The notes: generated by a model not told the origin, from the sequence alone. A stretch of 64,000 nt of DNA from Sedimentisphaerales bacterium (GCA_963708075.1 OY970194.1:640001-704000); one strand, 5' to 3'; counted from the first letter of the stretch, positions 1-64,000 are shown. Made by a program: numbers and translations.

Positions 1-629
1 CCGATCTTCCGATAGTACTCCTGAATCGTCTTCATCTCGACAAGATTCAGAAAGAGGTCCTTGTCCTTGCTGAGCGTCTCCAGCCCGGCGTCGTCGAGGT
101 CGCGAATGGGCCAGGTGGTGATATTCAGCTCGTACGGCTTCAAGTGGGGGCTTGGCGGCTCGGCCTCATCGCCGATCACCACGTCCTCAATGACGTCGTT
201 GGCCAGGATCTTCCTGGCGACGGTGTCGATCTGGCTGGCCTTGATGTCGCCCAGGAGGACGTACTTGCGGGCCGTACGCACCCCGGCCGGCGCGGCGCCC
301 ATATCCGCAATCGCCGCCATCACCGACTCGGCGACCGGGTCGGTGACGCCGCTCTTGAGGTGCACTTCGACCAGCGTTGCCTTGGCCAATCCCGGCGGCG
401 GGCCGCTTCGCCCGATGTGATATTCCTCACAGACGGGATCCGCCAGGAGTTCTTTTGCGACGCGCTCCGCAAAGCTCTGGTCGAAATCGGCTTCGATCAG
501 AAAGACCCTGGCCGACTGGACTACTTCGATGGAGGTGATGCCTAACTCGCGAATATCTTCCAGCACATTGTTGCCCTGTACATCCGGTACGCCGGGCCGG
601 CTGAAAACCTCAACACGCCATTGTCTCAC
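1..629 (-). CDS. purL: Phosphoribosylformylglycinamidine synthase PurL with N-terminal PurS-like domains (runs off window edge)
   Basis: Manual translation from GTG at 629 (GTGA overlap with tyrA stop): RQWRVEVFSRPGVPDVQG...LLADPVCEEY...VEVHLKSGVTDPVAES...LANDVIE...DLFLNLVEMKTIQEYYRK. Two PurS-like repeats are followed by the PurL linker. Not in the ORF track because it is truncated. Confidence 0.88.
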   Translation of the reverse strand, partial: MRQWRVEVFSRPGVPDVQGNNVLEDIRELGITSIEVVQSARVFLIEADFDQSFAERVAKELLADPVCEEYHIGRSGPPPGLAKATLVEVHLKSGVTDPVAESVMAAIADMGAAPAGVRTARKYVLLGDIKASQIDTVARKILANDVIEDVVIGDEAEPPSPHLKPYELNITTWPIRDLDDAGLETLSKDKDLFLNLVEMKTIQEYYRKI

Positions 630-12388: not shown

Positions 12389-13773
12389 CGGATACGCAGA
12401 GAAGCTGGGAGAAACGTCTGGCCGCCAAGCCGGACGAGTTGACGGTCGATTACGTTGAATCCCTGTCCTACGACAAGCGATTGTACAAGTATGACATTGT
12501 CGGCTCCATCGCTCATGCGACGATGCTCGCGGAACAGAAGTTCATCACGCAGCCGGAGCTCAAGGCCATCAAGGATGGGCTCGTCGCAATCAGCGAGGAC
12601 ATCGAGGCGGGGCGATTCGAGTTCGACAAGTCGTGCGAGGATATTCACATGGCCATCGAGGCGGCCCTGATCAAGCGGATCGGCGAGCCGGGACAAAAGT
12701 TGCACACCGCCCGCAGCCGCAATGATCAGGTCGCCACCGACATCCGCCTGTGGCTGCGCGACGAGATCGAGACCATGCAGGCCAAGATCGTCGCCCTGCA
12801 GAATGCCTTCGTGCAACTGGCGGGCAAGCACACGGAGGACCTGATGCCCGCATATACGCACATGCAGCGGGCACAGCCCGTCGTCATCGCCGCTTACCTG
12901 CTGAGCTTCGTCGAGCAGCTCGAGCGTGACTTCATGCGGCTGCGGAACTGCCGCAGCCTCCTGAATGCCTCGCCGCTCGGCGCCGGGGCCATTGCGGGCT
13001 CGACGCTGGCCATCGACAGGGAGAGCACGAGCCGGCAGCTTGGCTTTATCGATATCGTGTACAACAGCATCGATGCCGTTAGTGACCGCGATTTCTGCGC
13101 TGAATTCATCTTCGATTGCGCCCTCATGGCGGCGCACGTGTCACGGTTCGCCGAGGACTGGATCATCTTCTCCACGAACGAGTTCGCGTTCATCCGGATC
13201 GATGATGCGTTCTGCACATCGTCGAGCATGATGCCCCAGAAGCGAAACCCGGACGTGCTGGAGCTCATGCGGGCCAAGACGGGCAGCGTGTACGGGGCAT
13301 TGATGGCTATGCTCACGATCCTCAAAGGCCAGCCTTCCGGCTACAATCGCGACCTGCAGGAGGACAAGATCCACGTCTTCTCGACCGCCGACACGATGGA
13401 GAAATCGCTCGGTATCGCCGCGGCGGTGGTCTCTCATACGACATTCAACACCGGGCAGATTGTCGCCGGCATGGATGATGGCTTCCTCGACGCCACGGCG
13501 TTGGCCGAGTACCTCGTGGGCAGGGGAGTGCCCTTCCGCAAGGCCCACGGCATTGTCGGGACCCTTGTCGCCTGCTGCGAGAAGGAGAATAAGTCGCTGG
13601 CCGAGCTATCCTTGGATCAACTCAAGGAATATTCGCCCGCCATCAACAGTGATGTGTATGACTACCTCGGCGCCCGGAACGTCGTACGGCGCTACGTTTC
13701 CGCCGGCGCGGGTGGGCCAGAGCAAGTACGGCAGCAAATCGAGTTTTGGAAGAAGCACCTGGCAAAGCAATGA
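12385..13773 (+). CDS. argH: Argininosuccinate lyase (canonical)
   Basis: EDIHMAIE, HTARSRNDQ, YTHMQRAQP, SSMMPQKRNPD, YNRDLQEDK, PFRKAHGIVG. Confidence 0.96.
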   Translation: MTDTQRSWEKRLAAKPDELTVDYVESLSYDKRLYKYDIVGSIAHATMLAEQKFITQPELKAIKDGLVAISEDIEAGRFEFDKSCEDIHMAIEAALIKRIGEPGQKLHTARSRNDQVATDIRLWLRDEIETMQAKIVALQNAFVQLAGKHTEDLMPAYTHMQRAQPVVIAAYLLSFVEQLERDFMRLRNCRSLLNASPLGAGAIAGSTLAIDRESTSRQLGFIDIVYNSIDAVSDRDFCAEFIFDCALMAAHVSRFAEDWIIFSTNEFAFIRIDDAFCTSSSMMPQKRNPDVLELMRAKTGSVYGALMAMLTILKGQPSGYNRDLQEDKIHVFSTADTMEKSLGIAAAVVSHTTFNTGQIVAGMDDGFLDATALAEYLVGRGVPFRKAHGIVGTLVACCEKENKSLAELSLDQLKEYSPAINSDVYDYLGARNVVRRYVSAGAGGPEQVRQQIEFWKKHLAKQ

Positions 13774-48871: not shown

Positions 48872-49139
48872 GCATGCTCATTTCAGGAGGGAGAAATCAA
48901 AAAGCCAGTCTTCCCTGTTGAAGCGAGCCTGACCTTCATCCCGCAGAACTCCACCTCATGGATTCCGGATGGCAGAAGCCCGGTGGAGATCCCTGTCAAA
49001 ACAGTCGAACTCCAGCCTGTATCAGTCTGGCCCTGGCGGGTAGAATTGGTTTGAGGCCCGAGGTTGGACTGCTAAGCCGGTATCGGCGGGCCGGGTAGTC
49101 AATCGCTGATGAATGGGTATTCTTGCTGAGGAACTGACG

Positions 49140-49904
49140 ATGATCGTGGATGCCGATTGTCACATCTCGCCCTTTCGGGAGGGCGTGCATATCAGCGCTG
49201 ATGAATTGCTGCGGCGGATGGACCGTTCGGGTGTGGACAAGGCGATTGTCTGGTTGACCCCGCCGTACAAGCGGGAGATCGACGAGTCCAACGCTTACGT
49301 GTGCCAGGCGGTCAGGGCGCACGCGGACCGCCTCCTGGGATTCGGTTGGGCCGACCCGCGGCTGGGCGTGCAGAAGGCCAGGGAGATGGCACGCAAATGC
49401 ATGCACCAGTACGGCTTCCATGGCGTCAAGATCAACGGGGCACAGAACGATTTCTACATCGACGATCCCGAGGTGTCTATGCCCCTTGTAGAAGAAATCG
49501 CCAAGGCGGGCAAGCTTCTCGCCTTTCATTGTGGCGTGGACGCCTTTGAGCGGACGCACCCGCAGCGGATCGCCAGAATCGCCCGGCGGTTTCCCGAGAC
49601 ACAGATTCTCTGCGTGCACATGGGCGGTGTGGGTTTTCCCGACATGAGCAGGGCGATGATCGAGGCGGCGCAGGAGTGTCCCAACCTGCACCTGATCGGC
49701 AGCATGGTCCAGCATACCTCCGTGCTGAATGCCGTCAAAACGCTCGGGGCCGATCGGGTCTCGTTCGGCAGCGACACGCCGTTTTCCTTGATGCACGTCT
49801 GTGTCGCCATGTACAATGCACTGCTCGACGGCGAAGTCACGCCGGAACAGAAAGCCCAGATCATGGGTGGCAATATCCTGCGCCTTCTCGGCCGTCGCGC
49901 GTGA
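49140..49904 (+). CDS. Amidohydrolase family 2 protein
   Basis: IVDADCH, GVKI, AFHCG, VHMGG, SFGSDTPF. Confidence 0.85.
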   Translation: MIVDADCHISPFREGVHISADELLRRMDRSGVDKAIVWLTPPYKREIDESNAYVCQAVRAHADRLLGFGWADPRLGVQKAREMARKCMHQYGFHGVKINGAQNDFYIDDPEVSMPLVEEIAKAGKLLAFHCGVDAFERTHPQRIARIARRFPETQILCVHMGGVGFPDMSRAMIEAAQECPNLHLIGSMVQHTSVLNAVKTLGADRVSFGSDTPFSLMHVCVAMYNALLDGEVTPEQKAQIMGGNILRLLGRRA

Positions 49905-50860: not shown

Positions 50861-51988
50861 TCATCTATCGGGGATCTGATTCACACGGGAGCTGCTGAAT
50901 ACGCCATGGAGCACATCGAGCTTCATGGTTTCTTCGCCTTGCGTTGGGGCGACGATGCCCCCCTCGCCAAACTCATTCCATGCGTAGATGGTGAAAGCTT
51001 TCTGTCCGGGGAAGCCTAATGGGCCTGTAGTCTGCAGGTCTTCACGCATCCTTTTGAGCACTTGGCCCCACTCCTGCCGCGTCGGGAAGGCGAAGTAGGC
51101 TCGCCGATCCGGCCATGGCCGTGGATTCCAGCCCGCGGCGACGTGAGGCAGGTAGGGGATCGCATCTTGCGCGTGCTTCTTTCGTCCCTCTTCCGTGAAC
51201 GCCGCCAACGTCGCGTAGGGGTAGTCATCCTGTCGCTGGTCCAGAGGCGGCACATCCATGTAGGTGGACGTGAAATCGAACAACTTCATAGCCCAGTGGC
51301 CTGTCGGGATTGGCTCGTGTCCCCCTACGCCACATCCGATCATCATCTCGCCTACGCCGGCTTGCCTGGCGGCTTCTCTGAGTCTGTCCAAACGCTGTCG
51401 GCACACGTCGAGGTTCTTTCCGCTCTGCACCAGGAAGTTGTGTCCGCCATGCACCTTGAACACGGCTTTGCCGCCGATTCGCAGATAGCTTGGGTGGGCC
51501 ATGCACTTGAGCCACACGGAGATGCATCTCTCCCAATCCTCGTCGCGCGTGACCTCATACCGCGGGGAGTTGCAGAAATCGATCATGAAGCGAAGCCGAT
51601 GCGCTTGTGGCGAATTCATGAAATCTGTGATGCCACGCTCAAGGTAGCGTGAATTCGGCTCCTTCTCCACACCGGGCGGATTGTAGTACCAGAGAATCAC
51701 GAAGAAATCGACGCCATGTTCTGCCGCGGCGACGATCTCGCGATTCATGGTTTCCTCGCAGTTGTATTGCCCCAACAGCGGAATCCGCTCGGGAAACTCC
51801 GGTCGCCAGTCCTCGCCCGAGCGGCTGTGCCATTTGTTCGGCATCGCCTCCCACCACCCGGGAAAATACGCGACGCCGACCAACACGTCGTCAGTTGGCG
51901 CACTCCTTACCGGTTCCGCGTCGCCGTATCCTCGCTCACACAGGCACAGCGAAAGCGCGGCAAGTGTCATTACCACCCGGTGCCACAT
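50861..51988 (-). CDS. Secreted GH99/GH71-like (beta/alpha)8 glycoside hydrolase-like protein
   Basis: Signal peptide; AYFPGW, PLLGQY, HGVDFF..WY, HPSYLRIGGK, GWNPRPW, YAWNEFGEG; starts 22 bp after the lyase stop. Confidence 0.75.
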   Translation of the reverse strand: MWHRVVMTLAALSLCLCERGYGDAEPVRSAPTDDVLVGVAYFPGWWEAMPNKWHSRSGEDWRPEFPERIPLLGQYNCEETMNREIVAAAEHGVDFFVILWYYNPPGVEKEPNSRYLERGITDFMNSPQAHRLRFMIDFCNSPRYEVTRDEDWERCISVWLKCMAHPSYLRIGGKAVFKVHGGHNFLVQSGKNLDVCRQRLDRLREAARQAGVGEMMIGCGVGGHEPIPTGHWAMKLFDFTSTYMDVPPLDQRQDDYPYATLAAFTEEGRKKHAQDAIPYLPHVAAGWNPRPWPDRRAYFAFPTRQEWGQVLKRMREDLQTTGPLGFPGQKAFTIYAWNEFGEGGIVAPTQGEETMKLDVLHGVFSSSRVNQIPDR

Positions 51989-52010: not shown

Positions 52011-53522
52011 TTATCCGCCGATCAACTTCTTTACGGCCTCTTCCAGGCTCTGGTCTGCTGCTTTGAGAGCCTCGCATCGTTTGGCGTGACGATCCTGCGC
52101 CTTCTGGAGGTTCTGTCTTCGCCGTGTGACCATTCTGTGGACTTCCTTCGGCGCCACGGCGCCCTGGGACTTGTGCGCCTCTACGAAATGCATGGCGTCG
52201 AGAGCCTGCGCCAGGCCTTTGGGGTCCAGGTTCAGAGGCTTTCCGATGATTTTCACCGCCGCCCGGTCCACCACGTCCGTGTTGATGTCGGTGGCTGTGC
52301 CGCCTTTTTCCCACACCTCGTGGACGGACTCTCCGACAATGGCATGGGCAACGCGCAGGGGCAGATGAGTTTCACGGAACAGGAATGCGGCAAGCTCCGT
52401 CGCCGTGGAGAAGCCTCGCTGGGCGTGGCGGAGCATGATGTCCTTCTTGACAATCAGGTTGTTCAGCACCTTGTTGAAGGTGTTGATGGCCTTGATGACG
52501 TCAGCGACGGTGTTGGGGACGTACTCGCTGGCTTCGTAGACCTCGATCGTGTCTCCGTAGAGGGTGTTCTGAGCGCGGCAGACGATATCGCTGTAGCAGC
52601 CAAGCACCTTGCCGAGCGTGCAGCGGATCTCCTCGAAAACGCAGGGACTTTTCTTCTGAGGCATCATGCTCGACGCTTCACAAATGGCGTCGGTCAGCTC
52701 GATCATGTTGAATTCGAACGTTGCCCACCAGTGCATTTCGTTCGCAACCCGGCTCATGGGGATGGCCAGGTTGATCATCGCCGCGACCACATTCGTGGCC
52801 TGGTCCGTCGAGGCCACGCAATCATTCGTATGCTCCATCACGCGATCGAAACCGAGGAACCGGGCGGGCTTTTCCCGATCGACGTTGAAACTGGTCCCGG
52901 CAAGGGCCCCGCAGCCCAGATCGCATATGTTGATGACATCGTAGGCTTGCTCAAGCTGGACAGCGGCCCGGTCAACGGCCTCATACAGGCCCAGCAGATA
53001 ATGGCCGAACGTCATCGGCTGAGCATGCTGGTTATGGGTATATCCGGGCATCACGGCGTCACGGTATTCGTCCGCCCGGTCGAGCAGGTTCTGGCGGAAT
53101 TCCAGGGTGGCCTGGACCAGGGGCACGACCGCCTCCCGCAGTTTCATCCGGTACAGTGGCGGCGGGAGCGTGCGGCCGATATTGATATTGCCGGCGATGG
53201 ATCCAACCTTATCCATCAGATAGCGTTCAAACTGGACCCTCCACTTATAGAAATGCGGGTCGTAGCTTTGGATCATTTCCTCGATCGCCTTGTCGTCGAT
53301 GCGGCTCAGGGTCTTGAGGATCTCGTGCCCCTCGCCTTTGTCGATGATGCCCCGCTCGATGAGCATCACTGTCCAGGCTTTGTGGACCTTGGTGGCCCGG
53401 GGGATCTCGTCGTATGCCAGGGCGGCGAACGCCTTGCGACCCTCCTCCAAAGACGGTATTTCTTTCCCCCGCAGCCGGGAGTGTGTGTCGGGCTTGATGT
53501 CTCTGTAGTTTTGCACGTGCAT
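52011..53522 (-). CDS. Divergent argininosuccinate-lyase-like enzyme (aspartase/fumarase superfamily)
   Basis: MPGYTHNQHAQP, LGCGALAGTS, SSMMPQKKSP, STATELA, PLRVAHAIVG; lacks the ArgH HTARSRNDQ and YNRD motifs; RBS GGAG. Confidence 0.88.
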   Translation of the reverse strand: MHVQNYRDIKPDTHSRLRGKEIPSLEEGRKAFAALAYDEIPRATKVHKAWTVMLIERGIIDKGEGHEILKTLSRIDDKAIEEMIQSYDPHFYKWRVQFERYLMDKVGSIAGNINIGRTLPPPLYRMKLREAVVPLVQATLEFRQNLLDRADEYRDAVMPGYTHNQHAQPMTFGHYLLGLYEAVDRAAVQLEQAYDVINICDLGCGALAGTSFNVDREKPARFLGFDRVMEHTNDCVASTDQATNVVAAMINLAIPMSRVANEMHWWATFEFNMIELTDAICEASSMMPQKKSPCVFEEIRCTLGKVLGCYSDIVCRAQNTLYGDTIEVYEASEYVPNTVADVIKAINTFNKVLNNLIVKKDIMLRHAQRGFSTATELAAFLFRETHLPLRVAHAIVGESVHEVWEKGGTATDINTDVVDRAAVKIIGKPLNLDPKGLAQALDAMHFVEAHKSQGAVAPKEVHRMVTRRRQNLQKAQDRHAKRCEALKAADQSLEEAVKKLIGG

Positions 53523-53582
53523 CTTCTCCAAAATAAAAAATGGCTGTTTCAGCCATCGTAGTGAAACCAGAAATCCAGGAGC

Positions 53583-53646
53583 AGTCTATGGGTTATGTAA
53601 ACATGTCGAAACGCCATTTTGCGCCTTTCGACCCCCATTTTGCGCA
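53583..53646 (-). promoter_or_regulatory. Tandem-repeat operator plus -10 hexamer (copy A) upstream of the lyase
   Basis: CCATTTTGCGC at 53614 and 53635 (21-bp period); TAGACT 21 nt downstream on the minus strand. Confidence 0.75.
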
Positions 53647-53809
53647 CGGCATCCCCTTCAGGGGGCCAGAAAGCCATTCCGCATGGACGGACGGCGCGCC
53701 CTCGCCATTTGTCGGCTAATCTCACTTATACTCTACGGATGAGATTGCAGGCAAAAGTCCTGTTGGATGCAGCAGGGTCCAAAAGTGTGGTAGATGAGAG
53801 GTCGTGCGG

Positions 53810-54907
53810 ATGAACTCCAAGGAGCGAACGAGGATTGCCCTGACTCGCAGCGGCATCCCCGATCGCATCCCTGTGCAATTCGATTTGTGCAAATCCCTCA
53901 TCGAGTACTTTGCAGAAGAACTCGGAGTGCGGCCGGAGTACGCCTACTCCTATTATGAGGACCTCACCTATCGCATCTCGGCCAATGCCATTCGCACGCG
54001 GCTCGGCAGTGACGTGGTTGTCGTAGGCGGAACAGTGGCGGCCGGTTTTCACGCTGTGGAGCTGGAGGACGGGACTTCGCTCAACGAGTTCGGGATGAAG
54101 ATGCGGCCCACGCAGCTCTATGTGGAGGTGGTGGAGCCTCCGCTGAGGGACGTGTCCTCCATCGAGGACATCGAACGATATGCCTTTCCAGACCCGTATG
54201 CGCCCGGCCGATTCGACATCGCCAAGAAGGAGATTGCCAGATTCGGGAAAAAGTTCTTTGTCATCGGGGATTGCGAGCTCAGCCTCTTCGAGCTGGCCTG
54301 GCAACTGGTGGGGCTGGAGAGGTACATGATGGCTCTGGCCACAGAGGAAAAATGGCTGGAGGCATTGTCCGATAGAGTGGAGTACTGGACGACTCACATT
54401 GCGCTGCAGTTGGTGAAACTCGGTGTCGACGCCCTCTGGTTTGGGGAGGATTTAGGGACACAGACCTCGGTCCTGATGTCGCCGGCGATGTGGAGAGCCC
54501 GATTCAAGCCCCGCTACGTGCGCATGTTCCGCATGCTCAAACAGGTGAATCCCGATGTGATCCTCATCATGCATTCGGATGGGGCGGTGGCTCCGCTGTT
54601 GACGGATTTCATCGAGATGGGGGTACAGGTGTACAACCCTGTTCAACCGAACGTTCCCGGCTCCGGTCCGCTGGAGCTGAAACAGAAATACGGCGATTCC
54701 ATCGCGTTCTTCGGCGGGGTCGATCAGCAGCAGTTGCTGCCCAGCGGGGATGCCATCAAAACGTCGTTGGAGATCAGACGACTGTGCAGAATTATGGGCC
54801 AGAACGGCGGCTACCTGCTGGCGCCGGCCCACATCATCCAGGCCGATGTCAAGCCGGACATGGTCCGGCTGATGATCGATGCCGCAAAGGGGTTTGGGCA
54901 GTATTAG
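53810..54907 (+). CDS. Uroporphyrinogen decarboxylase-like (UroD/MtaA superfamily) protein
   Basis: PDRIP, GEDLGTQ..MSP..WR..FKP, MHSDG, NPVQP, GGVDQQ, APAH.IQ. Confidence 0.85.
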   Translation: MNSKERTRIALTRSGIPDRIPVQFDLCKSLIEYFAEELGVRPEYAYSYYEDLTYRISANAIRTRLGSDVVVVGGTVAAGFHAVELEDGTSLNEFGMKMRPTQLYVEVVEPPLRDVSSIEDIERYAFPDPYAPGRFDIAKKEIARFGKKFFVIGDCELSLFELAWQLVGLERYMMALATEEKWLEALSDRVEYWTTHIALQLVKLGVDALWFGEDLGTQTSVLMSPAMWRARFKPRYVRMFRMLKQVNPDVILIMHSDGAVAPLLTDFIEMGVQVYNPVQPNVPGSGPLELKQKYGDSIAFFGGVDQQQLLPSGDAIKTSLEIRRLCRIMGQNGGYLLAPAHIIQADVKPDMVRLMIDAAKGFGQY

Positions 54908-54947
54908 ACATCTCCGATTCTCTGGAGTCTTTAAGGGTGACACGAAG

Positions 54948-55262
54948 ATGAAACGAAGAGCATTCAAGATGAAGTTGAAGCCGGGTTGTGCGGCGGAGTA
55001 CAAGAAACGACACGACGAGATCTGGCCGGAGGTGAAGGCTTCCATAGCTAAATCCGGCATCTCCGACTATTCGATCTTCCTTGACGAAGAAACGATGACG
55101 CTATTCGCCGTTCAGAAGCTTAGCGAGAACAACACAGTCGAGGGGTTGCCGCGGAGCGCGGTCACCCGCAAGTGGTGGGACTATATGAAGGACATCATGG
55201 AGTGCAATCCCGACAACTCGCCCGTTCGCACCCCCCTGAAAGAGATGTTTCACATTGACTGA
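54948..55262 (+). CDS. rhaM: L-rhamnose mutarotase
   Basis: RAFKMKL, EYKKRHDEIWPE, YSIFLD, KWW.YM.DIM, NPDNSP, EMFHID. Confidence 0.92.
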   Translation: MKRRAFKMKLKPGCAAEYKKRHDEIWPEVKASIAKSGISDYSIFLDEETMTLFAVQKLSENNTVEGLPRSAVTRKWWDYMKDIMECNPDNSPVRTPLKEMFHID

Positions 55263-55275
55263 TCGCGCTCTCGTC

Positions 55276-55878
55276 TCACAGTTCTGCCTGGCGTATGCCG
55301 AGTTGCCTGTAGATCGTCGGCAGCTTTTGCCTGACGGCTTGTCGCACGTCCTCGTACAGACTCACGCCATGTGAATCCATCGCCACGATCAGCGGGCCGA
55401 AGTTTTTCACTCTGAACTTGTAGATCGCCTCGGGATGAAGCTGCGGCCAATAAACGTCTTCCACGGCTTCGATCTGCTTCGTCTCGATCGCAGCGGCGCC
55501 TCCGACGATGGCGAAGTAACACGCCCCGAATCGCATCATGGCATCGAGACTGCCCTGGTAGAGCCCGGATTTGCCGATGATGGCCCGCACGCCGTATTCC
55601 TCCAGCAGCGGGGCCGTGAACCTGTCCATGCGGGTGCTGGTCGTTGTGCCGACAATGATCGTTTCCCAGCCTTTGTCCGTCTTCTTGAGACTCGGGGCGG
55701 TATGCAGGACGGGATAACCGGCCAAATCGACAGGAGGGGCATTGTGCCCGTCGAACATGTGGATCAGAGTTTTGTCCCTCATGCCGAATATGTGGCCGCT
55801 GATTGTGACCACATCTCCGGCACGAAGAGAACGCATGAGTGCTTCGTCAAAGGGCGTGTTAAGAACGTACGACGCCAT
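55276..55878 (-). CDS. Fe-S hydro-lyase beta subunit (fumarate hydratase/tartrate dehydratase C-terminal type)
   Basis: LRAGDVV.ISG..RD, GTTTSTRMD, IIGKSG, GGAA, FGPLIVAMDSHG.SLY. Confidence 0.9.
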   Translation of the reverse strand: MASYVLNTPFDEALMRSLRAGDVVTISGHIFGMRDKTLIHMFDGHNAPPVDLAGYPVLHTAPSLKKTDKGWETIIVGTTTSTRMDRFTAPLLEEYGVRAIIGKSGLYQGSLDAMMRFGACYFAIVGGAAAIETKQIEAVEDVYWPQLHPEAIYKFRVKNFGPLIVAMDSHGVSLYEDVRQAVRQKLPTIYRQLGIRQAEL

Positions 55879-55889
55879 AGCCGCGGCCC

Positions 55890-56769
55890 CTAAAAACCGT
55901 ATTCCACTCTGCCGTCAGCCCAAATTCTGCGCGGCGCGTCGTGCCGCCCAGCATTGCGTGTTGACGGCCACCGGATTCTGCGTGATGTGCGTGTATGCCC
56001 ACTCGATGTGAACGGCCAGCGTCGAAACATCGCCCCCAAGACCCATGGGACCACTGCCCGTGGCGTTAATAGCTTGCTCCAACTGTTCTTCCAGCTCTGC
56101 AAACAGGGGGTCCGGGTTCCTCGTGCCGACCGGACGGGCAATCGCCTTCTTGGCCAGTACGCCCACCAGGTCGAATGTTCCGCCGATACCGACGCCGATG
56201 ATTCCCGGCGGACACGGATTGCCCCCAGCGCCTGTGACGGTGTCAATGATGAACTTCTTGACGGCACCCAGCCCCTCGGCGGGGGTGAACATCCTTACAG
56301 CACTCACGTTCTCGGAGCCCGAGCCCTTGGGGATCATGAGGATGTCGAGGCAGTCGGCCTGCGGGTCGAAATCCCAGTGGATCACGGGCAACCCGGCACC
56401 GACGCTCGTCTGCGGATTCTCCCGGGTCACAGGATGCAGCGAACTGCCCCGGAAGGGATATTCGAGAGTGGCCCGCTGTGCCCCCTCGGCGAGAGCGGCC
56501 CTGAGTTTCGACCCATCGACGGCGATCCGTCCCCCGATTTTCACCATGTAGACAGGCAACCCCGTATCCTGGCAGATCAGCATGTCCTGCGTGTCGGAGA
56601 CTTCGATGCTCTTGAGAATGGTCTCCAGAATGGTCTTTGCGGTGGGTTTTGTCTCCCGCGCATGGGCCTTGCGAATGGCCTCCTTGACGTCGGGCGGCAG
56701 AACCTTGAGCGCCCTGATATAGAGTTCCTTCGCAACCTCCTGCACAAGCTGGTAATTCAGTCCGGTCAT
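55890..56769 (-). CDS. Fe-S hydro-lyase alpha subunit; apparent frameshift at ~55930
   Basis: ICQDTG, KGSGSEN, GNPCPP..GVGIGG, GPMGLGG, VAVNTQCWAARR; likely C-terminus RIWADGRVEYGF* in the adjacent frame. Confidence 0.9.
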
Positions 56770-56781
56770 CCCCAGGATGCT

Positions 56782-57915
56782 CTAAAACTTCAAGTAAGAT
56801 CCTAAACTTGTTACCAATAGCCAGGACACCACGCCGACGGAAACAGCCGCGATCAGCCCGCAGACGAAAGGTTTATAACCCAGCTTCGTCAGCTTGCGAA
56901 TGTTCGTATTCAGGCCGATGCAACTGACGGCGATGGCTATCAGATACGTCGCTGATGTTTTAACAAAATCGCAGGTGCCCGTCCAGCTGGCGTTTGCACT
57001 GCCGAAAGCGTAGTCGCCTAATGATCGCAGCAGGACGACAACGATATAGCCAAGCACGAACAGAGGAATGTACTTGGCGATCTGCCAACCTTTTGCAGAG
57101 GCGTTGCGGGCGTTCTTTCTGGCGAACAAGTATCCCAGGACCGGAATGACGAACACCATGAAGGTGTTTCGCACGAGTTTCGTCGTGATCGCAATATCCG
57201 CCCCGGTCAGCCCCGTTGCTGTCTTGTGCGCCCAGAGTTGGTCGTAGATCAGCGACGACGCGGTGACTTGAGATGTATCATGGACGGCGGTGCCCAGAAA
57301 GAACCCTGCCGCCGCCGGGCTCAGGTGCAGGAAGGATTCGGCCATGTAAGGATATACCATTGTGGCCAGAATTCCGAAGATGGTGATGGTCCCCACGGCG
57401 TAGGCGATCTCCTCTTCTTCGGCCTCGATGGTTGGCGCACTGGCCAGGATGGCGCTGACGCCGCAGATGCTTGTGCCGGCCGCCACCAGCGTCGCCAGCT
57501 TCTCGCTGATCCCCAGCCTCTTGGCCACGAACGCCGTGATGGCAAGACCTGCCACGATGCAGACAAAAACCATGCCTACCGCTACGGCTCCGATCTTGAG
57601 CACGGAAAGGATGCTCAGACGGATACCCATCAGGATGATTCCCAGCCGCAGGAGTTTGCTGAGCCCGAACTTGATCCCCGGCTCCAGCTTCGCCGGCAGA
57701 GGAATCGTGTTCCTGACGAGCAGGCCGAGAATGATCGCAACAAGGATGGGGCTCAGGAGACTCTCCTTCCAACCCATGGCCTTGCCAATCGCGTTGGCGG
57801 CGACGGTGCCTGCGAGCATCACCAGGACCGCTACAACCACTCCGGGCAGCAAAACGAGAACATTCTGATTGCCGAACAACACATCCTTCAGTACGGCGGA
57901 CACTCCACGCTTCAT
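56782..57915 (-). CDS. YeiH / putative sulfate exporter family membrane protein
   Basis: LLRLGIILMG, GTSICGVSAI, GTAVHDTSQV, TKLVRN; about 10 TMs. Confidence 0.9.
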   Translation of the reverse strand: MKRGVSAVLKDVLFGNQNVLVLLPGVVVAVLVMLAGTVAANAIGKAMGWKESLLSPILVAIILGLLVRNTIPLPAKLEPGIKFGLSKLLRLGIILMGIRLSILSVLKIGAVAVGMVFVCIVAGLAITAFVAKRLGISEKLATLVAAGTSICGVSAILASAPTIEAEEEEIAYAVGTITIFGILATMVYPYMAESFLHLSPAAAGFFLGTAVHDTSQVTASSLIYDQLWAHKTATGLTGADIAITTKLVRNTFMVFVIPVLGYLFARKNARNASAKGWQIAKYIPLFVLGYIVVVLLRSLGDYAFGSANASWTGTCDFVKTSATYLIAIAVSCIGLNTNIRKLTKLGYKPFVCGLIAAVSVGVVSWLLVTSLGSYLKF

Positions 57916-57936
57916 GATATCCTCAAATTGACTTGG

Positions 57937-58776
57937 CTATATCGTGTAATCCTGCGGCGCCCCAACGGCATCGTGGTACTTCTTCCAGTGTTCTTTCCTC
58001 AGGACGCCTATCGTGTCGCCCCGAAGGCCGGCTCGCAGCGCGGCCGCCGCCAGGATATCCTTCGGCTGGACGTTGCCAATGCTGGCGCCAGGTCCATATT
58101 TCATGTAGATCGACTGCTGCTGGTCCTTGTTCGGGGCTTCGATCATCGTGTTCTCCAGCCCCACAGCCTGGATGATCGTGCCCAGTTCCTCGAAGTTGAC
58201 TTCGCCGCTCTTGCTCATGACACCGATGCCCTTGCCGGATTCCCTGGCCTCGATGATCACCATGGCCGCGCCGCTTCGGAGGTCCTTGGTCATGAGCTCG
58301 ATCCGCCTGTCCAGCGTAATGGCCGCGTCTTTTGCCGCGTCTTTTTTGCCCACTTCCGAAATGACCGTGAATCCCGCCTGAATGCACATCTGGATAATGT
58401 CGGCCCGGCGTTCGTCGGGGATGTAGATCGTGCCGTCGGAGAACTCCAGGTGCGTGAATCCCAGTGACTTGGCGTACTTGAGGTATGGCCCAAGACACTT
58501 CTTTGTGTAGCCGCCGGCACAGAGGATCGCTACCTCCGTCAGGGTCCCCCCGATCATGGGGCTGATCCCGGATTTCTGGTAGATCTCGACTTTCTCCTGC
58601 AGAATTTCTTCGTTGTACAGGCTCGCCGTTCCAAACGTGCACTTGACGATATCCGCCAGCCCGGCGGCGATGTTGACCCAGTCGTCTGCGCCGACCGGCC
58701 CGAATTCCTTCTCGATCACCATGATCGCACCGTTCTTCTGCGGAACGGGGATGAACTTCTCGAATGCTCTGGCCAT
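57937..58776 (-). CDS. comA: Phosphosulfolactate synthase (ComA family)
   Basis: GT.SLY..L.EK, GGTL.E, EFSDG, SEVGKK, IEARESG, EAP, GNV, LRAGLRGDT; RBS AGGAG. Confidence 0.88.
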   Translation of the reverse strand: MARAFEKFIPVPQKNGAIMVIEKEFGPVGADDWVNIAAGLADIVKCTFGTASLYNEEILQEKVEIYQKSGISPMIGGTLTEVAILCAGGYTKKCLGPYLKYAKSLGFTHLEFSDGTIYIPDERRADIIQMCIQAGFTVISEVGKKDAAKDAAITLDRRIELMTKDLRSGAAMVIIEARESGKGIGVMSKSGEVNFEELGTIIQAVGLENTMIEAPNKDQQQSIYMKYGPGASIGNVQPKDILAAAALRAGLRGDTIGVLRKEHWKKYHDAVGAPQDYTI

Positions 58777-58848
58777 GTGTTTCTCCTGCTCCTTTATCAT
58801 TTGAATCGAGCGATGTAGAAGGCGCTTGCGCCCATGAGGTGGTTCTCT

Positions 58849-59892
58849 TTAACCTGTCAGTCCTTCCCAGCAGTTGTCCGAGCCCGCAACGACTTTGACT
58901 GCACGATCGACGTAGTTGAGCAAGCCATCGACGGCCTGGTATCTGCCTCGCATGAGGGCGGGATTATCCAGCCCTGCGGTGGGGATGTTGTCATACAGCA
59001 AGATGTTGGACGCGATCTTCTCGCTGATGTTGTCGAAAAGGGCCTTTTGTGTAACTCGTTTGTCCTTCAGATGGCTGATGAAGTTCTTATGCCGTCCTTC
59101 CTCCACGCGGGGCAGAATCAGGGTGATCCTGGGAGAATGGATCGTGTCCGACGCGGTCTGCATCTCCCCCAGATCGACGGCCACTTTCCTGCCCCACTCG
59201 TCGTCCGTCTCGGGCAGTTGCTCTTTCAGTTTCTCCAGGAGAAACGGGTAGCTGTACTTCAGGTTGCCGATCCGGATGTTGTCGACGACGGCGCCTTTGT
59301 AGAAGATGGGGCCGTGATCGAGGTAGAAGTGCGTCATCTCGGCGGAAAACAGCTTCAGGCCCAGTTCCAGTCCTCTGGCCAGCAGGCAGCTCTTGCCGCT
59401 GCCGGTGGTGCCGGCGGCGATATAGAGATGGTTCGCCTGCTCATTGTAGAGCGAACAGGCGTGAAGGCTGTAGATGCTGTGCTTTTTCTCCAGCATCATG
59501 AGGATATACCGGAAGACGAGGCCTTCGTTGCCGAAGAGGGTATATCGCAGATCCGAGGCCTGCTCGGTGGCCTGGAGAATCGACCCGGTCAGTTGAATCT
59601 GCCCGTCGGATACCTTGACTTCAATGGGCTGATCCGCCACATCGGTCATGGTGATGTAGAAGTCCAGCCCTTTGTCGCGGTACTCGATGGGCTCGATCTC
59701 GTGAAAGTCGGTCAGCAGGGATTCGAAACTGGCGGAGAAAAAGAGCTTGGGAAGCAACTGTTCGTTGTTGGCCGTAATCCCAAACGTGACCTTGAGCACC
59801 CGGAAGGCTTTCTTCACGGCGGAGTGAGTGCTCGTGATCGAACTCAGATCTTTATGGCTCGCACTTGCACTGTGCGATGAAATCCGACGCAT
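58849..59892 (-). CDS. HPr-kinase-like P-loop protein, unknown function (start uncertain)
   Basis: LHACSL...AGTTGSGKS...LFSAE arrangement of the HPrK/PEPCK-like P-loop family. Confidence 0.65.
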   Translation of the reverse strand: MRRISSHSASASHKDLSSITSTHSAVKKAFRVLKVTFGITANNEQLLPKLFFSASFESLLTDFHEIEPIEYRDKGLDFYITMTDVADQPIEVKVSDGQIQLTGSILQATEQASDLRYTLFGNEGLVFRYILMMLEKKHSIYSLHACSLYNEQANHLYIAAGTTGSGKSCLLARGLELGLKLFSAEMTHFYLDHGPIFYKGAVVDNIRIGNLKYSYPFLLEKLKEQLPETDDEWGRKVAVDLGEMQTASDTIHSPRITLILPRVEEGRHKNFISHLKDKRVTQKALFDNISEKIASNILLYDNIPTAGLDNPALMRGRYQAVDGLLNYVDRAVKVVAGSDNCWEGLTG

Positions 59893-61276
59893 GATCCAAT
59901 GTCTCCAATTCCTGTATGGATGTGATGATTGCCTCTGCCTTATCAGCGGGGCAGATTCCGGAGAATTCCGCGCACCCTCGAAATTTGGCGATCGTATCGG
60001 CCATCGTCATGGCCTTGGGACTGAGGATTTCACGGATTGTATAGGTCTTACTCAACTCTCTGCCGTCCCTGGTCGTCACTGTCACTGTGTGAGGCTTGTC
60101 CACGTGGGGAGGGAAATCATCCTCGATCCGGACGTATCCTCCGGGCACTTCGCGGTTGGCCACAATGCGGATTCTCGTCGCCAGCTCCGCGACCTCCGTA
60201 TCCTTGCTCACCTGTCGATCCGTGAACTCCGCCAGGCCTGCTCGTCGGCGCAGCAATGCCACCGCCACTCCGTAGGCGGCGGAGAACTGGGCATTCACCT
60301 GGGGGGTGTCTCCCATCTCGAAAGGCTGGCCGACCAGGTTCTCGCCGTCGGGACCTCCATGAATGTAGATGGTGACATCTTTCAGGTCGTCCTTTCGAAG
60401 ATCGTACTGCTGAGCCAGATCCAGCGCCGCCTGGGTCACAGGGTGGGCCAGGCCGCAACTGGTGAAGCGTTTGATCGTGTTGCGCTCAATCTCAAAGAAG
60501 CCGCGGCTGCGACGTATCTCCTCCTCGGAGGGAGGGGCCACGTTGATGTAGACCCTGAACAGCCCGGCGTCCCCTTCTGCCGCGTGCTCCGGTCCCGTGA
60601 GTCCTCGTCCCGCCAGAGCTGCCGACCAGACCGCATTTCTGGCGGCAAACGCCGGCTGCAGCCGCTTCGTCAGCGTTTTCTCGAACAGGGCTTGTCGGTT
60701 GCCGCTGGCCTGTGCGTAGTTGATTCCCATGGCATTGACTGTCTGGTCCACGCTGTAGCCCAGCAGCCGACAGGCCGCCGCGGTCGCGCCGAAACCACCC
60801 ACGACACTGCTGGGCAGAAAACCTCTTCCCTGCGGCCCTTTGCGTAACCTGTTGTATGGCATTCCCAGCCTGCAAGCGGTCTCCACGCCTAAGATGATGC
60901 CGTCGAGGAGTTCCCCGCCGGTGGCATCCGTCATCTCTGCTGCGGCCAGGACGGTCGGCATGACAATGCTCGTGATGTGAAGAGCAGAAGGGTCGTGCAG
61001 GTCGTCGTAGTCGAGGGCGTGGGCCATCACGCTGTTCACGAATGCGGCATTGGGCGCCGGCACCTTGGACCCATACACCAGAATCGTCGATTCCTCTTTC
61101 CCGCTCCATTCGCGTATCTGCTCGAACAGCTCACGAATCCCAGGAGCATTCCAAGCGGCGACGCTTACACCGACCGTATCGAGAATCAACTTCCTGCACG
61201 CATCACGCGCGCTGGTGGTGATTGCATCTGAGCTCGTCTTAACGGCCATCTCGGCCAGTATTCTTGTCAGCGACAT
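59852..61276 (-). CDS. MmgE/PrpD family protein
   Basis: ILDTVGV..A, AAFVN..AHALDYDDLH, GVE..CRL, KRLQP..AAR, IKRFTSC..AH, AQFS..Y, KF. Confidence 0.92.
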   Translation of the reverse strand: MSLTRILAEMAVKTSSDAITTSARDACRKLILDTVGVSVAAWNAPGIRELFEQIREWSGKEESTILVYGSKVPAPNAAFVNSVMAHALDYDDLHDPSALHITSIVMPTVLAAAEMTDATGGELLDGIILGVETACRLGMPYNRLRKGPQGRGFLPSSVVGGFGATAAACRLLGYSVDQTVNAMGINYAQASGNRQALFEKTLTKRLQPAFAARNAVWSAALAGRGLTGPEHAAEGDAGLFRVYINVAPPSEEEIRRSRGFFEIERNTIKRFTSCGLAHPVTQAALDLAQQYDLRKDDLKDVTIYIHGGPDGENLVGQPFEMGDTPQVNAQFSAAYGVAVALLRRRAGLAEFTDRQVSKDTEVAELATRIRIVANREVPGGYVRIEDDFPPHVDKPHTVTVTTRDGRELSKTYTIREILSPKAMTMADTIAKFRGCAEFSGICPADKAEAIITSIQELETLDHASDFIAQCKCEP

Positions 61277-61413
61277 AGCAACGTCAACTCGGTTGAAGGA
61301 TGCAGCAACGCAGAGATCCCGCAGCGTCGCGGCGTCGGTCCAGATTGACAGACACCGGCTTCGGCATAACTGATTGTCATCCGGGATAAATCTTCGATCA
61401 GGCACATATCTCC

Positions 61414-61477
61414 CTTGTACGGCATCCCGGGACCGGAACCAACACCAATTCGCGCTATTCTCCCCCCGTTTTGCGCA
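61414..61477 (-). promoter_or_regulatory. Operator copy B plus -10 hexamer upstream of the prpD-comA operon
   Basis: 61441-61477 matches copy A at 29/37 positions; TACAAG 21 nt downstream on the minus strand. Confidence 0.7.
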
Positions 61478-61657
61478 TCAGCCCTGGAACGATTGCAGGC
61501 TCTCCGTTGAAACCGGAGCATGGGAACAGGAGCGCTGGCGGACCGCACATACTGCCTGCGCCGTGCACTCTGTGACGGGCCAGAGGACCCATTCCGTTCT
61601 CCCGGCGAATTCGATACGGCCCGTATATCCGGCACAGACGGCACACCGAAGCCTTGA

Positions 61658-61722
61658 TGCGCAAAATGGGGGCGGAAAAGGCGCAAAGTGGCGTTGGGGT
61701 ATCCGGGCGGGACAGCTACAAT
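61658..61722 (+). promoter_or_regulatory. Operator copy C plus -10 hexamer upstream of uroD2-SSS
   Basis: TGCGCAAAATGGGGGCGGAAAAGGCGCAAAGTGGCGTT (61658-95) then TACAAT at 61717, 21 nt downstream. Confidence 0.75.
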
Positions 61723-61810: not shown

Positions 61811-62791
61811 GTGAATGGGATGGCAGGCACCGACATGACAGGACCCTCCGAGAATCGGTTCGTGAAGACGCTGCGGCGCACGCCTACGGACCGAGTTCCA
61901 ATCTTTGAGCACGTAATCGATGCGCGTTTTGTCAATCACGCGATTGGCCTGGACCAGCGGAGCCTGGATCTGGCCGCTGAGCCGTTTGCGCGGCTGGCCC
62001 GATATATGCACATGGATATCGTGACGATGGGCTATCGTTCCCGGGTGCCCGGCACGCGCACACGGGAGGATCTGGCCGCGATGCGATTGGCGGACCACGC
62101 GGAATTCCTCCGCCGCGTGGACGATTTCCTGCGGATACAAAAGGAAACGGGGCTCGGTGTAAATGTGTACGTGCACGGCCCCTTTGACTCTACCTACTTG
62201 TCAATGGGGTACGAGACGTTCTTTCTCAACCTTGCCGACGATATGGGCTTCATCGAAGCCATGATGGAGGTTTTCACGGAGGACGCTGTCGCCATGGTCA
62301 AAGCGCTGATCGCCAAAGGGGTGACCACGATCGAGCTCGTTGACGACATTGCCTATGCCAAGGGACTCTTCATCAGGCCGGACATCTTTCGCAGGCTGTG
62401 GATGACGCGTATGGAGAAGATCCTCGAACCCATCCACAGTTCCAACACTCCGGTTTTCTTTCATAGCGATGGTGACGCCCGTCAGTTCATCGACATGGTG
62501 CTCGACCTTGGCTTTCTCGGGCTCAATCCGGTCGAGCCACAGTGCAACGATATCGTCGCATTGAAGAAGGAGTACGGCGAGCGCATCACGCTGATGGGCA
62601 ATCTGGAAATCGGCGGAGTGCTCGCGTCGGGGACGTGCGACGAGGTCCGAAGGGAAATGAAACGATTGTTGGAGCAGATGATGCCGGGGTATGGCTACGT
62701 CGCCATGTCGTCGAACTCCCTGGCCAATTGCGTCGTGCCGGAGAACTATGTGGCTATGGTGGAGACGGTGCTGGAATTCGGCAATTATTGA
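61811..62791 (+). CDS. Second UroD-like superfamily protein (start may be 61820 or 61835)
   Basis: TDRVP, MGYETF, DDIAY..GLFIRP, FHSDG, NPVEP, GN, SSNSL. Confidence 0.85.
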   Translation: MNGMAGTDMTGPSENRFVKTLRRTPTDRVPIFEHVIDARFVNHAIGLDQRSLDLAAEPFARLARYMHMDIVTMGYRSRVPGTRTREDLAAMRLADHAEFLRRVDDFLRIQKETGLGVNVYVHGPFDSTYLSMGYETFFLNLADDMGFIEAMMEVFTEDAVAMVKALIAKGVTTIELVDDIAYAKGLFIRPDIFRRLWMTRMEKILEPIHSSNTPVFFHSDGDARQFIDMVLDLGFLGLNPVEPQCNDIVALKKEYGERITLMGNLEIGGVLASGTCDEVRREMKRLLEQMMPGYGYVAMSSNSLANCVVPENYVAMVETVLEFGNY

Positions 62792-62832: not shown

Positions 62833-64000
62833 ATGCAGTCAGGGTTGAGCCTTCTGGACATCATCGTCCTCGTCGCGTACTTTGCAGTCATCATTGGAAT
62901 CGGCGTATGGTCGTCCCGCCACGTCAGGAACCAGGAGGACTATTTCCTCGCGGGACGGCGATTCGGCAAGCTCGTCCAAACGTTCACCTCTTTTGGAACA
63001 GGAACCAACGTTGAGAGTATCGTAGGGGTCGCCGCCACGACGTTCACGAATGGGGCCGCGGGGATTTGGAGCTCGCTCGTCTATCTCTTCGTCACTCCGG
63101 TTTACTGGCTGGTTGCCCCGTGGATGCGGCGTCTTCGCGTCCTGACCATGGCGGATTACTTAGAGGAACGGTATGGCTCTAAAGCTATCGCGGGCCTTTA
63201 CACGTTGGTGGCGACCCTGGTCACAATCGCGCACTTGTCCGTAGGCTTCAACGCAGGTTCCAAGACGGTGATGGCGCTGTATCCTAAGGGCATCGAACAA
63301 CTGACGGTTGCCGAGACGGAGGAGCTATCACGGGCGCAGGAATTGGAGCGGCTCCAAAAATCGGACTATGGGATCCTGTCCGACCAGGAAAAGGACCGCC
63401 TTGACCAACTGCAGCGCGAAGCGCCCCGAAAGGCGTTCTCTCATATCGACAAGAACATATTCATCTGGATCATCTGTATCATCACGCTGATCTATGGCAT
63501 CTCCGGCGGCATGGAGGCGGCTGCACTGGCGGATGTTCTGCAGGGCATGTGCATCATCTTCATTACCCTCATCGTCTTTCCCTTCTGCTGGGCTCAGATC
63601 AACGAGGTCTATGGCGGCAGCGGCGTGATGGACGCCCTGCAGACAATGCACACGCGGCTGCCTGAGTCGTTTTTCGATATCCTTGGCTCGCCCGCTCTGA
63701 TGGATTTCACATGGTTCTACATTGCCGCTCTTTCGATGATGACGATCAGCAACACGCCGGCCCAGGGCCACTTTTTGACGGGCAATGCATCGGCAAAGAA
63801 CGAGTTCGCCTGCCGATTCGGATCGATATGTGGAGGCTACATCAAGCGATTCTGTGCCGTCTTGTGGGGATTCTTCGCGCTCTGCGCCCTGGCCATCTTT
63901 CACGATAAGATCAATGACCCTGACCTGATGTGGGGATATGCCTCCCGCGAGCTGCTCGGTTCCGCCGGCTTCGGCCTGCTTGGACTCATGGTCGCGGGCT
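62833..64000 (+). CDS. Sodium:solute symporter (SSS) family (runs off window edge)
   Basis: Manual translation: MQSGLSLLDIIVLVAYF...EDYFLAGRRFG..FGTGT...TMADYLEERYG...YGISGGMEAAALADVLQG...GLLGLMVA. Confidence 0.9.
   Translation, partial: MQSGLSLLDIIVLVAYFAVIIGIGVWSSRHVRNQEDYFLAGRRFGKLVQTFTSFGTGTNVESIVGVAATTFTNGAAGIWSSLVYLFVTPVYWLVAPWMRRLRVLTMADYLEERYGSKAIAGLYTLVATLVTIAHLSVGFNAGSKTVMALYPKGIEQLTVAETEELSRAQELERLQKSDYGILSDQEKDRLDQLQREAPRKAFSHIDKNIFIWIICIITLIYGISGGMEAAALADVLQGMCIIFITLIVFPFCWAQINEVYGGSGVMDALQTMHTRLPESFFDILGSPALMDFTWFYIAALSMMTISNTPAQGHFLTGNASAKNEFACRFGSICGGYIKRFCAVLWGFFALCALAIFHDKINDPDLMWGYASRELLGSAGFGLLGLMVAG

Follow-up and report, generated by a model that had tools for sequence, protein, structure and literature searches.

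Probable XylR-type operators, a nearby XylR-like regulator gene and their predicted regulon in a Sedimentisphaerales genome

For XylR of Escherichia coli, the published description (PMC3561964) reports sites of ~37 bp, made of two direct repeats, that lie beside the −35 elements of two divergent weak promoters. Two other known proteins are relevant to the genes considered here: ComA homologues, which add sulfite to phosphoenolpyruvate (PEP) in the synthesis of coenzyme M (PMC9457059), and YeiH, which drives sulfite resistance in Salmonella (PMC12880088). We describe three operators of XylR-type layout, A, B and C, in a stretch of 64,000 nucleotides (the window, G000:C1:640001-704000) of the 7.5-Mb genome of a Sedimentisphaerales bacterium (GCA_963708075.1). 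They stand ahead of genes for a lyase, a prpD-kinase-comA-yeiH-fumAB operon and a uroD2-symporter pair, and they are very probably the operators of XylR1, an XylR-type activator encoded nearby. The DUF1559 genes and the labels attached to homologues suggest a planctomycete. Positions refer to the window unless a genome, contig or locus (L) coordinate is given.

Operators and the regulator gene

Operator A (53610..53646, minus strand, 37 bp) and operator B (61441..61477, minus strand) are direct repeats with a period of 21 bp, and operator C (61658..61695, plus strand), which is divergent from B, has a period of 22 bp. The operators are thus 37-38 bp long, with two direct repeats in the XylR-type layout. 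Each is followed by a −10-like hexamer, TAGACT in predicted promoter A (53583..53588, minus strand), TACAAG in predicted promoter B (61414..61419, minus strand) and TACAAT in predicted promoter C (61717..61722, plus strand). The hexamer TACAAG is kept in two related loci (L126 and L127) and at site H elsewhere in the genome. The first-pass annotation of this DNA had given the sequences and coordinates of A, B and C, a period of 21-22 bp and a gap of exactly 21 nt between the final TT of the motif and the hexamer, and all of these were reproduced exactly on re-reading. The −35 position reads TTTCGA in A (53606-53611), TTGGTT in B and TTGGGG in C. All three promoters fail a consensus promoter scan, and on sequence alone the operators abut the −35 of weak sigma-70 promoters.

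Matches to the 14-mer half-site number 3 in the window, where 0.11 would be expected, and none of 100 shuffles reaches 3; this enrichment is descriptive only, as the pattern was derived from the sites themselves. Operators B and C and a fourth copy, D, are matched without a single difference by contigs of public run X1, and the 22-bp period of C is therefore not an assembly slip. Operator A is covered by a contig of run X3, from a related strain, with 5 differences in 186 nt, and the 4 that are listed are all located outside the 37-mer. The sites had also been assigned to an island. The GC content is 0.56-0.62 throughout the window, with no compositional sign of one.

The regulator gene, xylR1, is located outside the window, 1.1 kb past its end (genome 705097-706270, L001:4097-5270, minus strand). 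It sits between operator C and the near-identical operator D (genome 706407-706444, L001:5407-5444, plus strand), which is also outside the window, 137 bp from the start of the divergent xylR1, and is ahead of genes for DUF1559, LamG and GH106 proteins. An AraC-family activator had been expected beyond position 64000, and this gene bears out that expectation. The proposed AraC/XylS type holds for the AraC domain and is refined here to the XylR subtype, in which a LacI-like sensor is joined to that domain. Pfam assigns a LacI/GalR-like periplasmic-binding domain (PF00532/PF13377) to the N-terminal part of XylR1 and an AraC helix-turn-helix domain (PF12833, PF00165) to the C-terminal part, and the intact orthologue in L126 aligns to E. 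coli XylR (4fe4) over residues 6-382 with an E value of 1e-46. As assembled, xylR1 is split by a one-base frameshift. The extra base is missing from the contigs of 3 public runs (a fourth run has no coverage there), and the orthologues at 91% are intact, with intact genes in L126, L127 and L212. The frameshift is therefore most likely an assembly error, and true pseudogenisation is rejected on the run contigs that lack it.

The residues that contact xylose in E. coli XylR, Tyr18, Asp65, Trp135, Arg139, Asp219 and Gln237, correspond to Phe, Asp, Trp, Arg, Leu and Leu in L126. The effector of XylR1 is probably not xylose, because two of these six contacts are Leu. The replacement of Asp219 by Leu is found in 5 of 123 aligned rows, all of them XylR1 orthologues. 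A true XylR orthologue with a xylose regulon was rejected on two counts, as not all of the xylose-binding residues match and the genes behind A-D belong to other families. The inducer is probably an anion, with a sulfonate or carboxylate released from a glycan as the most likely metabolite.

Effector-bound XylR1 would bind the two half-sites, 21-22 bp apart and on one face of the helix. With the half-sites running into the −35 box, it would recruit sigma-70 polymerase at the poor −35 elements (TTTCGA, TTGGTT and TTGGGG) and in this way activate weak promoters of the sigma-70 class. By analogy with E. coli XylR, a loop could also form between B and C, which are divergent.

Sites in the genome and in relatives

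A model of the operator alone, without the −10, was iterated from sites A-D with column-shuffled controls and kept 15 sites of at least 23.5 bits. One of these (6319562) was dropped, as it is inside a ribosomal-protein gene, presumably rplM, and has no −10, and two lower-scoring sites (6786712 and 3968393) were added by context. The resulting ~16 family-type sites are all ahead of genes, with a long open reading frame (ORF) starting 40-318 nt downstream in 15 of the 16 and ~450 nt downstream in the remaining one. The hexamer is TAnnnT at +20 or +21 in nine of the 16 sites, [GC]ATAAT in five and TACAAG in two.

Seven of the sites form subtype I, namely A-D and sites E, G and H at 2.93 Mb. Subtype II has one site, beside XylR2 at 3.97 Mb, and subtype III has six, including one at 12 kb and one at 30 kb from XylR3; 2 further sites are intermediate between subtypes. 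By association, the variant subtypes appear to follow the two other XylR paralogues, XylR2 and XylR3. The second subtype I locus (L002:5121-11021, genome 2.925-2.931 Mb), with the divergent pair G/H and site E, carries a 99% copy of the P-loop (kinase) gene behind B, as well as genes paralogous to those for the DUF1559, LamG and GH106 proteins behind D. The three copies first noticed are real, and their number has to be raised to the seven of this subtype. The predicted regulon is correspondingly larger than first proposed, with site D and the three sites at 2.93 Mb added. It would comprise the lyase (A), prpD-kinase-comA-yeiH-fumAB (B), uroD2-symporter (C), DUF1559-LamG-GH106 (D) and the 2.93-Mb locus (E, G and H).

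The motif and XylR-type genes are linked in relatives as well. Starting from the genes, a site of at least 16 bits was found at 14 of 29 XylR loci, as compared to 2 of 290 shuffles, and in a larger set a site is located within 450 bp in 35 of 90 XylR genes. Starting from the motif, a relaxed pattern matches 88 loci in GTDB genomes, and 71 of the 80 titled ones are from Planctomycetota or Verrucomicrobiota. A full XylR-type gene is within 5 kb at 24 of the 88 loci, against ~0.4 expected, a rough figure in which the gene density was taken from other genomes (118 genes in ~213 Mb). Of 81 distinct sites, 52 have TAnnnT at +20..22, compared with 0-7 at ten control offsets. These 88 loci suggest that the core motif is a generic XylR site of the Planctomycetes-Verrucomicrobia-Chlamydiae group. 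The same operator core was also seen in Deefgea, Iodobacter and another member of Pseudomonadota (L081, L101, L110 and L043), with no XylR match in the stretch of flanking DNA covered.

In a tree of 120 XylR proteins, the XylR1 clade has the subtype I label on 3 of its 4 rows and the XylR2 clade has the subtype II label on 7 of its 9, an association and not co-evolution, as kin share labels. One row of this tree (L007) has an out-of-frame front part, which inflates its branch length, and L212 was left out. In L126 and L127, xylR1 is directly upstream of operator B and prpD-kinase-comA-yeiH. Operator B is identical in both loci, and the 21-nt spacer has diverged at constant length. Conservation at the site is limited to the operator and the spacing, and does not extend to the flanks.

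In a genome from another family (G510), xylR1 (63%), fumAB, yeiH, comA, the kinase gene, prpD, the symporter gene, rhaM, the uroD of the 2.93-Mb locus, the lyase gene (68%) and uroD2 (74%) form one cluster, in another order, with one operator before prpD and one before lyase-uroD2. A single regulator for the lyase, the prpD-comA operon and uroD2 with its symporter, as first proposed, is supported by this union of the orthologues, the regulator and the operators; in G510, none of the sites seen covers the symporter. The XylR1-operator system appears to be accessory, because comA, the subtype I pattern and an XylR1 match above 57% were found in none of 40 sampled relatives. The operon is present in G572 and G618, with no XylR match and no operator-pattern match, and G047 also has no operator-pattern match.

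Several observations weigh against XylR1 as the regulator of these sites. Within the cluster itself, the uroD1-rhaM operon has no operator site, and no site was found ahead of uroD-rhaM-symporter in G510. The genome G791 has the operon with a truncated XylR (56%) adjoining and two other XylR matches, and no operator-pattern match; a strong site is missing next to 55 of the 90 XylR genes of the larger set. As the subtype patterns come from the genome studied here, the contrast of 7 sites in it with 0 in the 40 relatives is partly circular. The XylR1 operator sequence, with its CGCAAAATGG core, differs from the E. coli XylR consensus. The hexamer of B, TACAAG, does not end in the T expected of a −10 and is poor. 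The leader of the A transcript has a terminator-like hairpin with a U tract just before the ribosome-binding site of the lyase gene (53539..53557, minus strand), the folding of which is no better than that of shuffles (z −1.43). Finally, the motif core is common to many XylR paralogues, and XylR3 could bind the same sites.

This last point leads to an alternative, which we consider unlikely, in which several paralogues (XylR1 and XylR3) read the sites in a shared network and the GGGGG subtype stems from recent copying of promoters, not from specificity. In their half-sites, subtypes I and III have almost the same core, the second helices of XylR1 and XylR3 are similar, C and D have a downstream leader sequence in common, and the kinase gene is duplicated at 99%. 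However, in G510, which has 10 XylR matches, the subtype is kept only at the XylR1 cluster, where both of its only 2 subtype-pattern matches are located. On G019:C135 and G007:C298 (both of the XylR3 clade) and on G021:C78, subtype III sites are ~2-3 kb away from other XylR genes. A repressor or a regulator of another family, blocking the −35, is a still poorer candidate. The repeat does overlap the first bases of the −35 position, but promoters that all fail the consensus scan would be weak unaided, the linkage is to XylR-type genes, and E. coli XylR, with the same geometry, is an activator. The last alternative is a sequence without regulatory function, either a dispersed repeat, which the first-pass annotation had named as a refuting case, or the end of a mobile element. 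It would account for the ~16 related copies but is largely refuted and extremely improbable, as each of the 16 is oriented toward a gene that starts 40-450 nt downstream and has a −10-like hexamer, an element absent from the model, and as the operator and spacing are conserved but the flanks are not.

Genes of the predicted regulon and a sulfonate reading

The gene behind operator A (52011..53522, minus strand) encodes a lyase of the argininosuccinate lyase superfamily. It is a paralogue of the probable housekeeping argH (12511-13767, plus strand), 26% identical to it, and was rejected as the housekeeping enzyme. It was also rejected as an XcbC equivalog (243 bits, cut-off 575). Its best matches in the Protein Data Bank (PDB) are 6rx8 and 6g3d, the latter of which we take to be EDDS lyase. 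A gene for a WbsX/glycoside-hydrolase-like protein (50861..51988, minus strand) is 23 bp downstream and probably co-transcribed. The gene at 49113-49904 and a GH16 gene are convergent with this operon and outside it. The uroD1-rhaM operon (53804-55262, plus strand) is divergent from A, and rhaM is part of the G510 cluster too.

Operator B precedes an MmgE/PrpD-family gene (59852..61276, minus strand), the product of which has iminodisuccinate (IDS) epimerase 2hp0 as its best PDB match. It is followed on the same strand by genes for a P-loop protein with the PEP carboxykinase (PEPCK)/HPr-kinase fold (58849..59892; the 99% copy is at genome 2929978-2931018, behind site H), a ComA-family phosphosulfolactate synthase homologue (57937..58800; PF02679; 1qwg, E value 4e-44), a YeiH-family exporter (56782..57915) and a two-subunit Fe-S hydro-lyase (55276..56769; fumarate hydratase/tartrate dehydratase alpha and beta). 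The prpD of the window is a second copy, and a 46-codon relic of the first copy remains ahead of it (61267..61407, minus strand). The first copy has its ATG 6 nt past the −10, where transcription is predicted to start, a leaderless-like arrangement. In the full prpD genes the ATG is 6 nt after the −10 in L126, which has two copies in tandem (L126:1497-4458), and 7 nt in L127, where the gene is an apparent chimera (L127:4588-6054). Leaderless transcription as a general trait was rejected, as an ATG is 6-8 nt past the −10 in only 5 of 52 sites; the arrangement is confined to B-type promoters. Operator C precedes genes for a URO-D/MtaA-fold protein (uroD2; 61820..62791, plus strand) and a sodium:solute symporter of 729 amino acids (62833..64000, plus strand), which continues past the window end.

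Two GH106 genes, at L001:10936-14015 (plus strand) and L002:3000-5081 (minus strand), look frameshifted, probably through more assembly indels. An ORF at L001:14675-15826 (plus strand) joins a ModE/LysR-like helix-turn-helix to a prepilin/DUF1559 domain, either as a fusion or by an assembly slip. A truncated 5′ fragment of a fourth XylR gene is located at genome 5907602-5907724 (minus strand, in L006).

The predicted structure of the P-loop protein has a confident fold (pLDDT 90). It resembles PEP carboxykinase (Z score 13.3, rmsd 4.6, 272 aligned) and HPr kinase (Z score 10.2, rmsd 2.5, 120 aligned), a likeness of fold that does not show function. The family has ~98 proteins, with homologues labeled Aminicenantes, Armatimonadetes and Spirochaetota, and searches of Pfam, PDB sequences and the ESM Atlas returned no name for it. 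Among 400 genomes, the P-loop gene was found in 4 others, and in all of them it adjoins comA or is within two genes of it, and yeiH follows; the two genes are side by side in G047, and G791 has an additional TauE sulfite exporter.

These neighbors allow a tentative proposal, to which we give a minority chance, for a route of organosulfonate desulfonation. The P-loop protein would phosphorylate a C3 sulfonate (sulfolactate) to phosphosulfolactate, ComA in reverse would release PEP and sulfite, and YeiH/TauE would export the sulfite. XylR1, with Leu in place of the xylose-binding acid, would sense the sulfonate, and the PrpD-like epimerase, the lyase and the fumarase would strip a C4-dicarboxylate from the same parent compound. 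Forward fixation of sulfite to sulfolactate is the rival reading, and the forward reaction is the known direction for ComA. Removal of sulfite from sulfolactate by the kinase-ComA pair, if it does occur, would give the organosulfur pool of sediments a new outlet.

Comparison with known systems

The value of the locus would be mainly in the regulated module, an enzyme set predicted to handle sulfonates and not previously described. Literature searches, limited to sources outside subscription journals and RegPrecise and judged by the matches listed (30 of 51 for the motif string), showed no description of the kinase-ComA module or of the operator. The XylR1 regulon would place a P-loop kinase-fold family, a non-coenzyme-M ComA, URO-D-like, DUF1559 and LamG proteins and glycoside hydrolases under a single inducer. 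The generic operator, CGCAAAATGG twice, 21-22 bp apart, and then GTT, with its paralogue-specific variants, could be used for reconstruction of XylR regulons across Planctomycetota and Verrucomicrobiota.

As in the bacterial coenzyme M pathway of XcbB and XcbC (PMC9457059), a ComA homologue and an argininosuccinate-lyase-like protein occur together, here under one predicted control. The ComA/XcbB homologue is present, but the lyase falls short of an XcbC equivalog and is closest to 6rx8/6g3d, none of XcbD, XcbE and XcbA was found among the 13 cluster proteins scanned, and the PEPCK-fold protein and YeiH/TauE exporters flank comA instead. Among solved structures, the closest relatives of the PrpD-like protein and the lyase are iminodisuccinate/EDDS enzymes (IDS epimerase 2HP0 and 6G3D), with a fumarase-type enzyme in the same predicted regulon here; the similarity is distant (E values of 5e-25 for the PrpD-like protein and 1e-56 for the lyase).

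The switch itself is of ordinary, textbook design, with a geometry equal to that of E. coli XylR at IA and IF (PDB 4FE4/4FE7; PMC3561964). The two regulators have the same domain order and full-length similarity, the sites are of the same ~37-bp two-direct-repeat type by the −35 of weak promoters, and the divergent pair has the layout of B and C. On the other hand, the xylose contacts Asp219 and Gln237 are Leu in XylR1, the targets are not xylose genes, and XylR1 has at least 7 predicted sites in two loci, in a genome with several paralogues that have their own motif variants.

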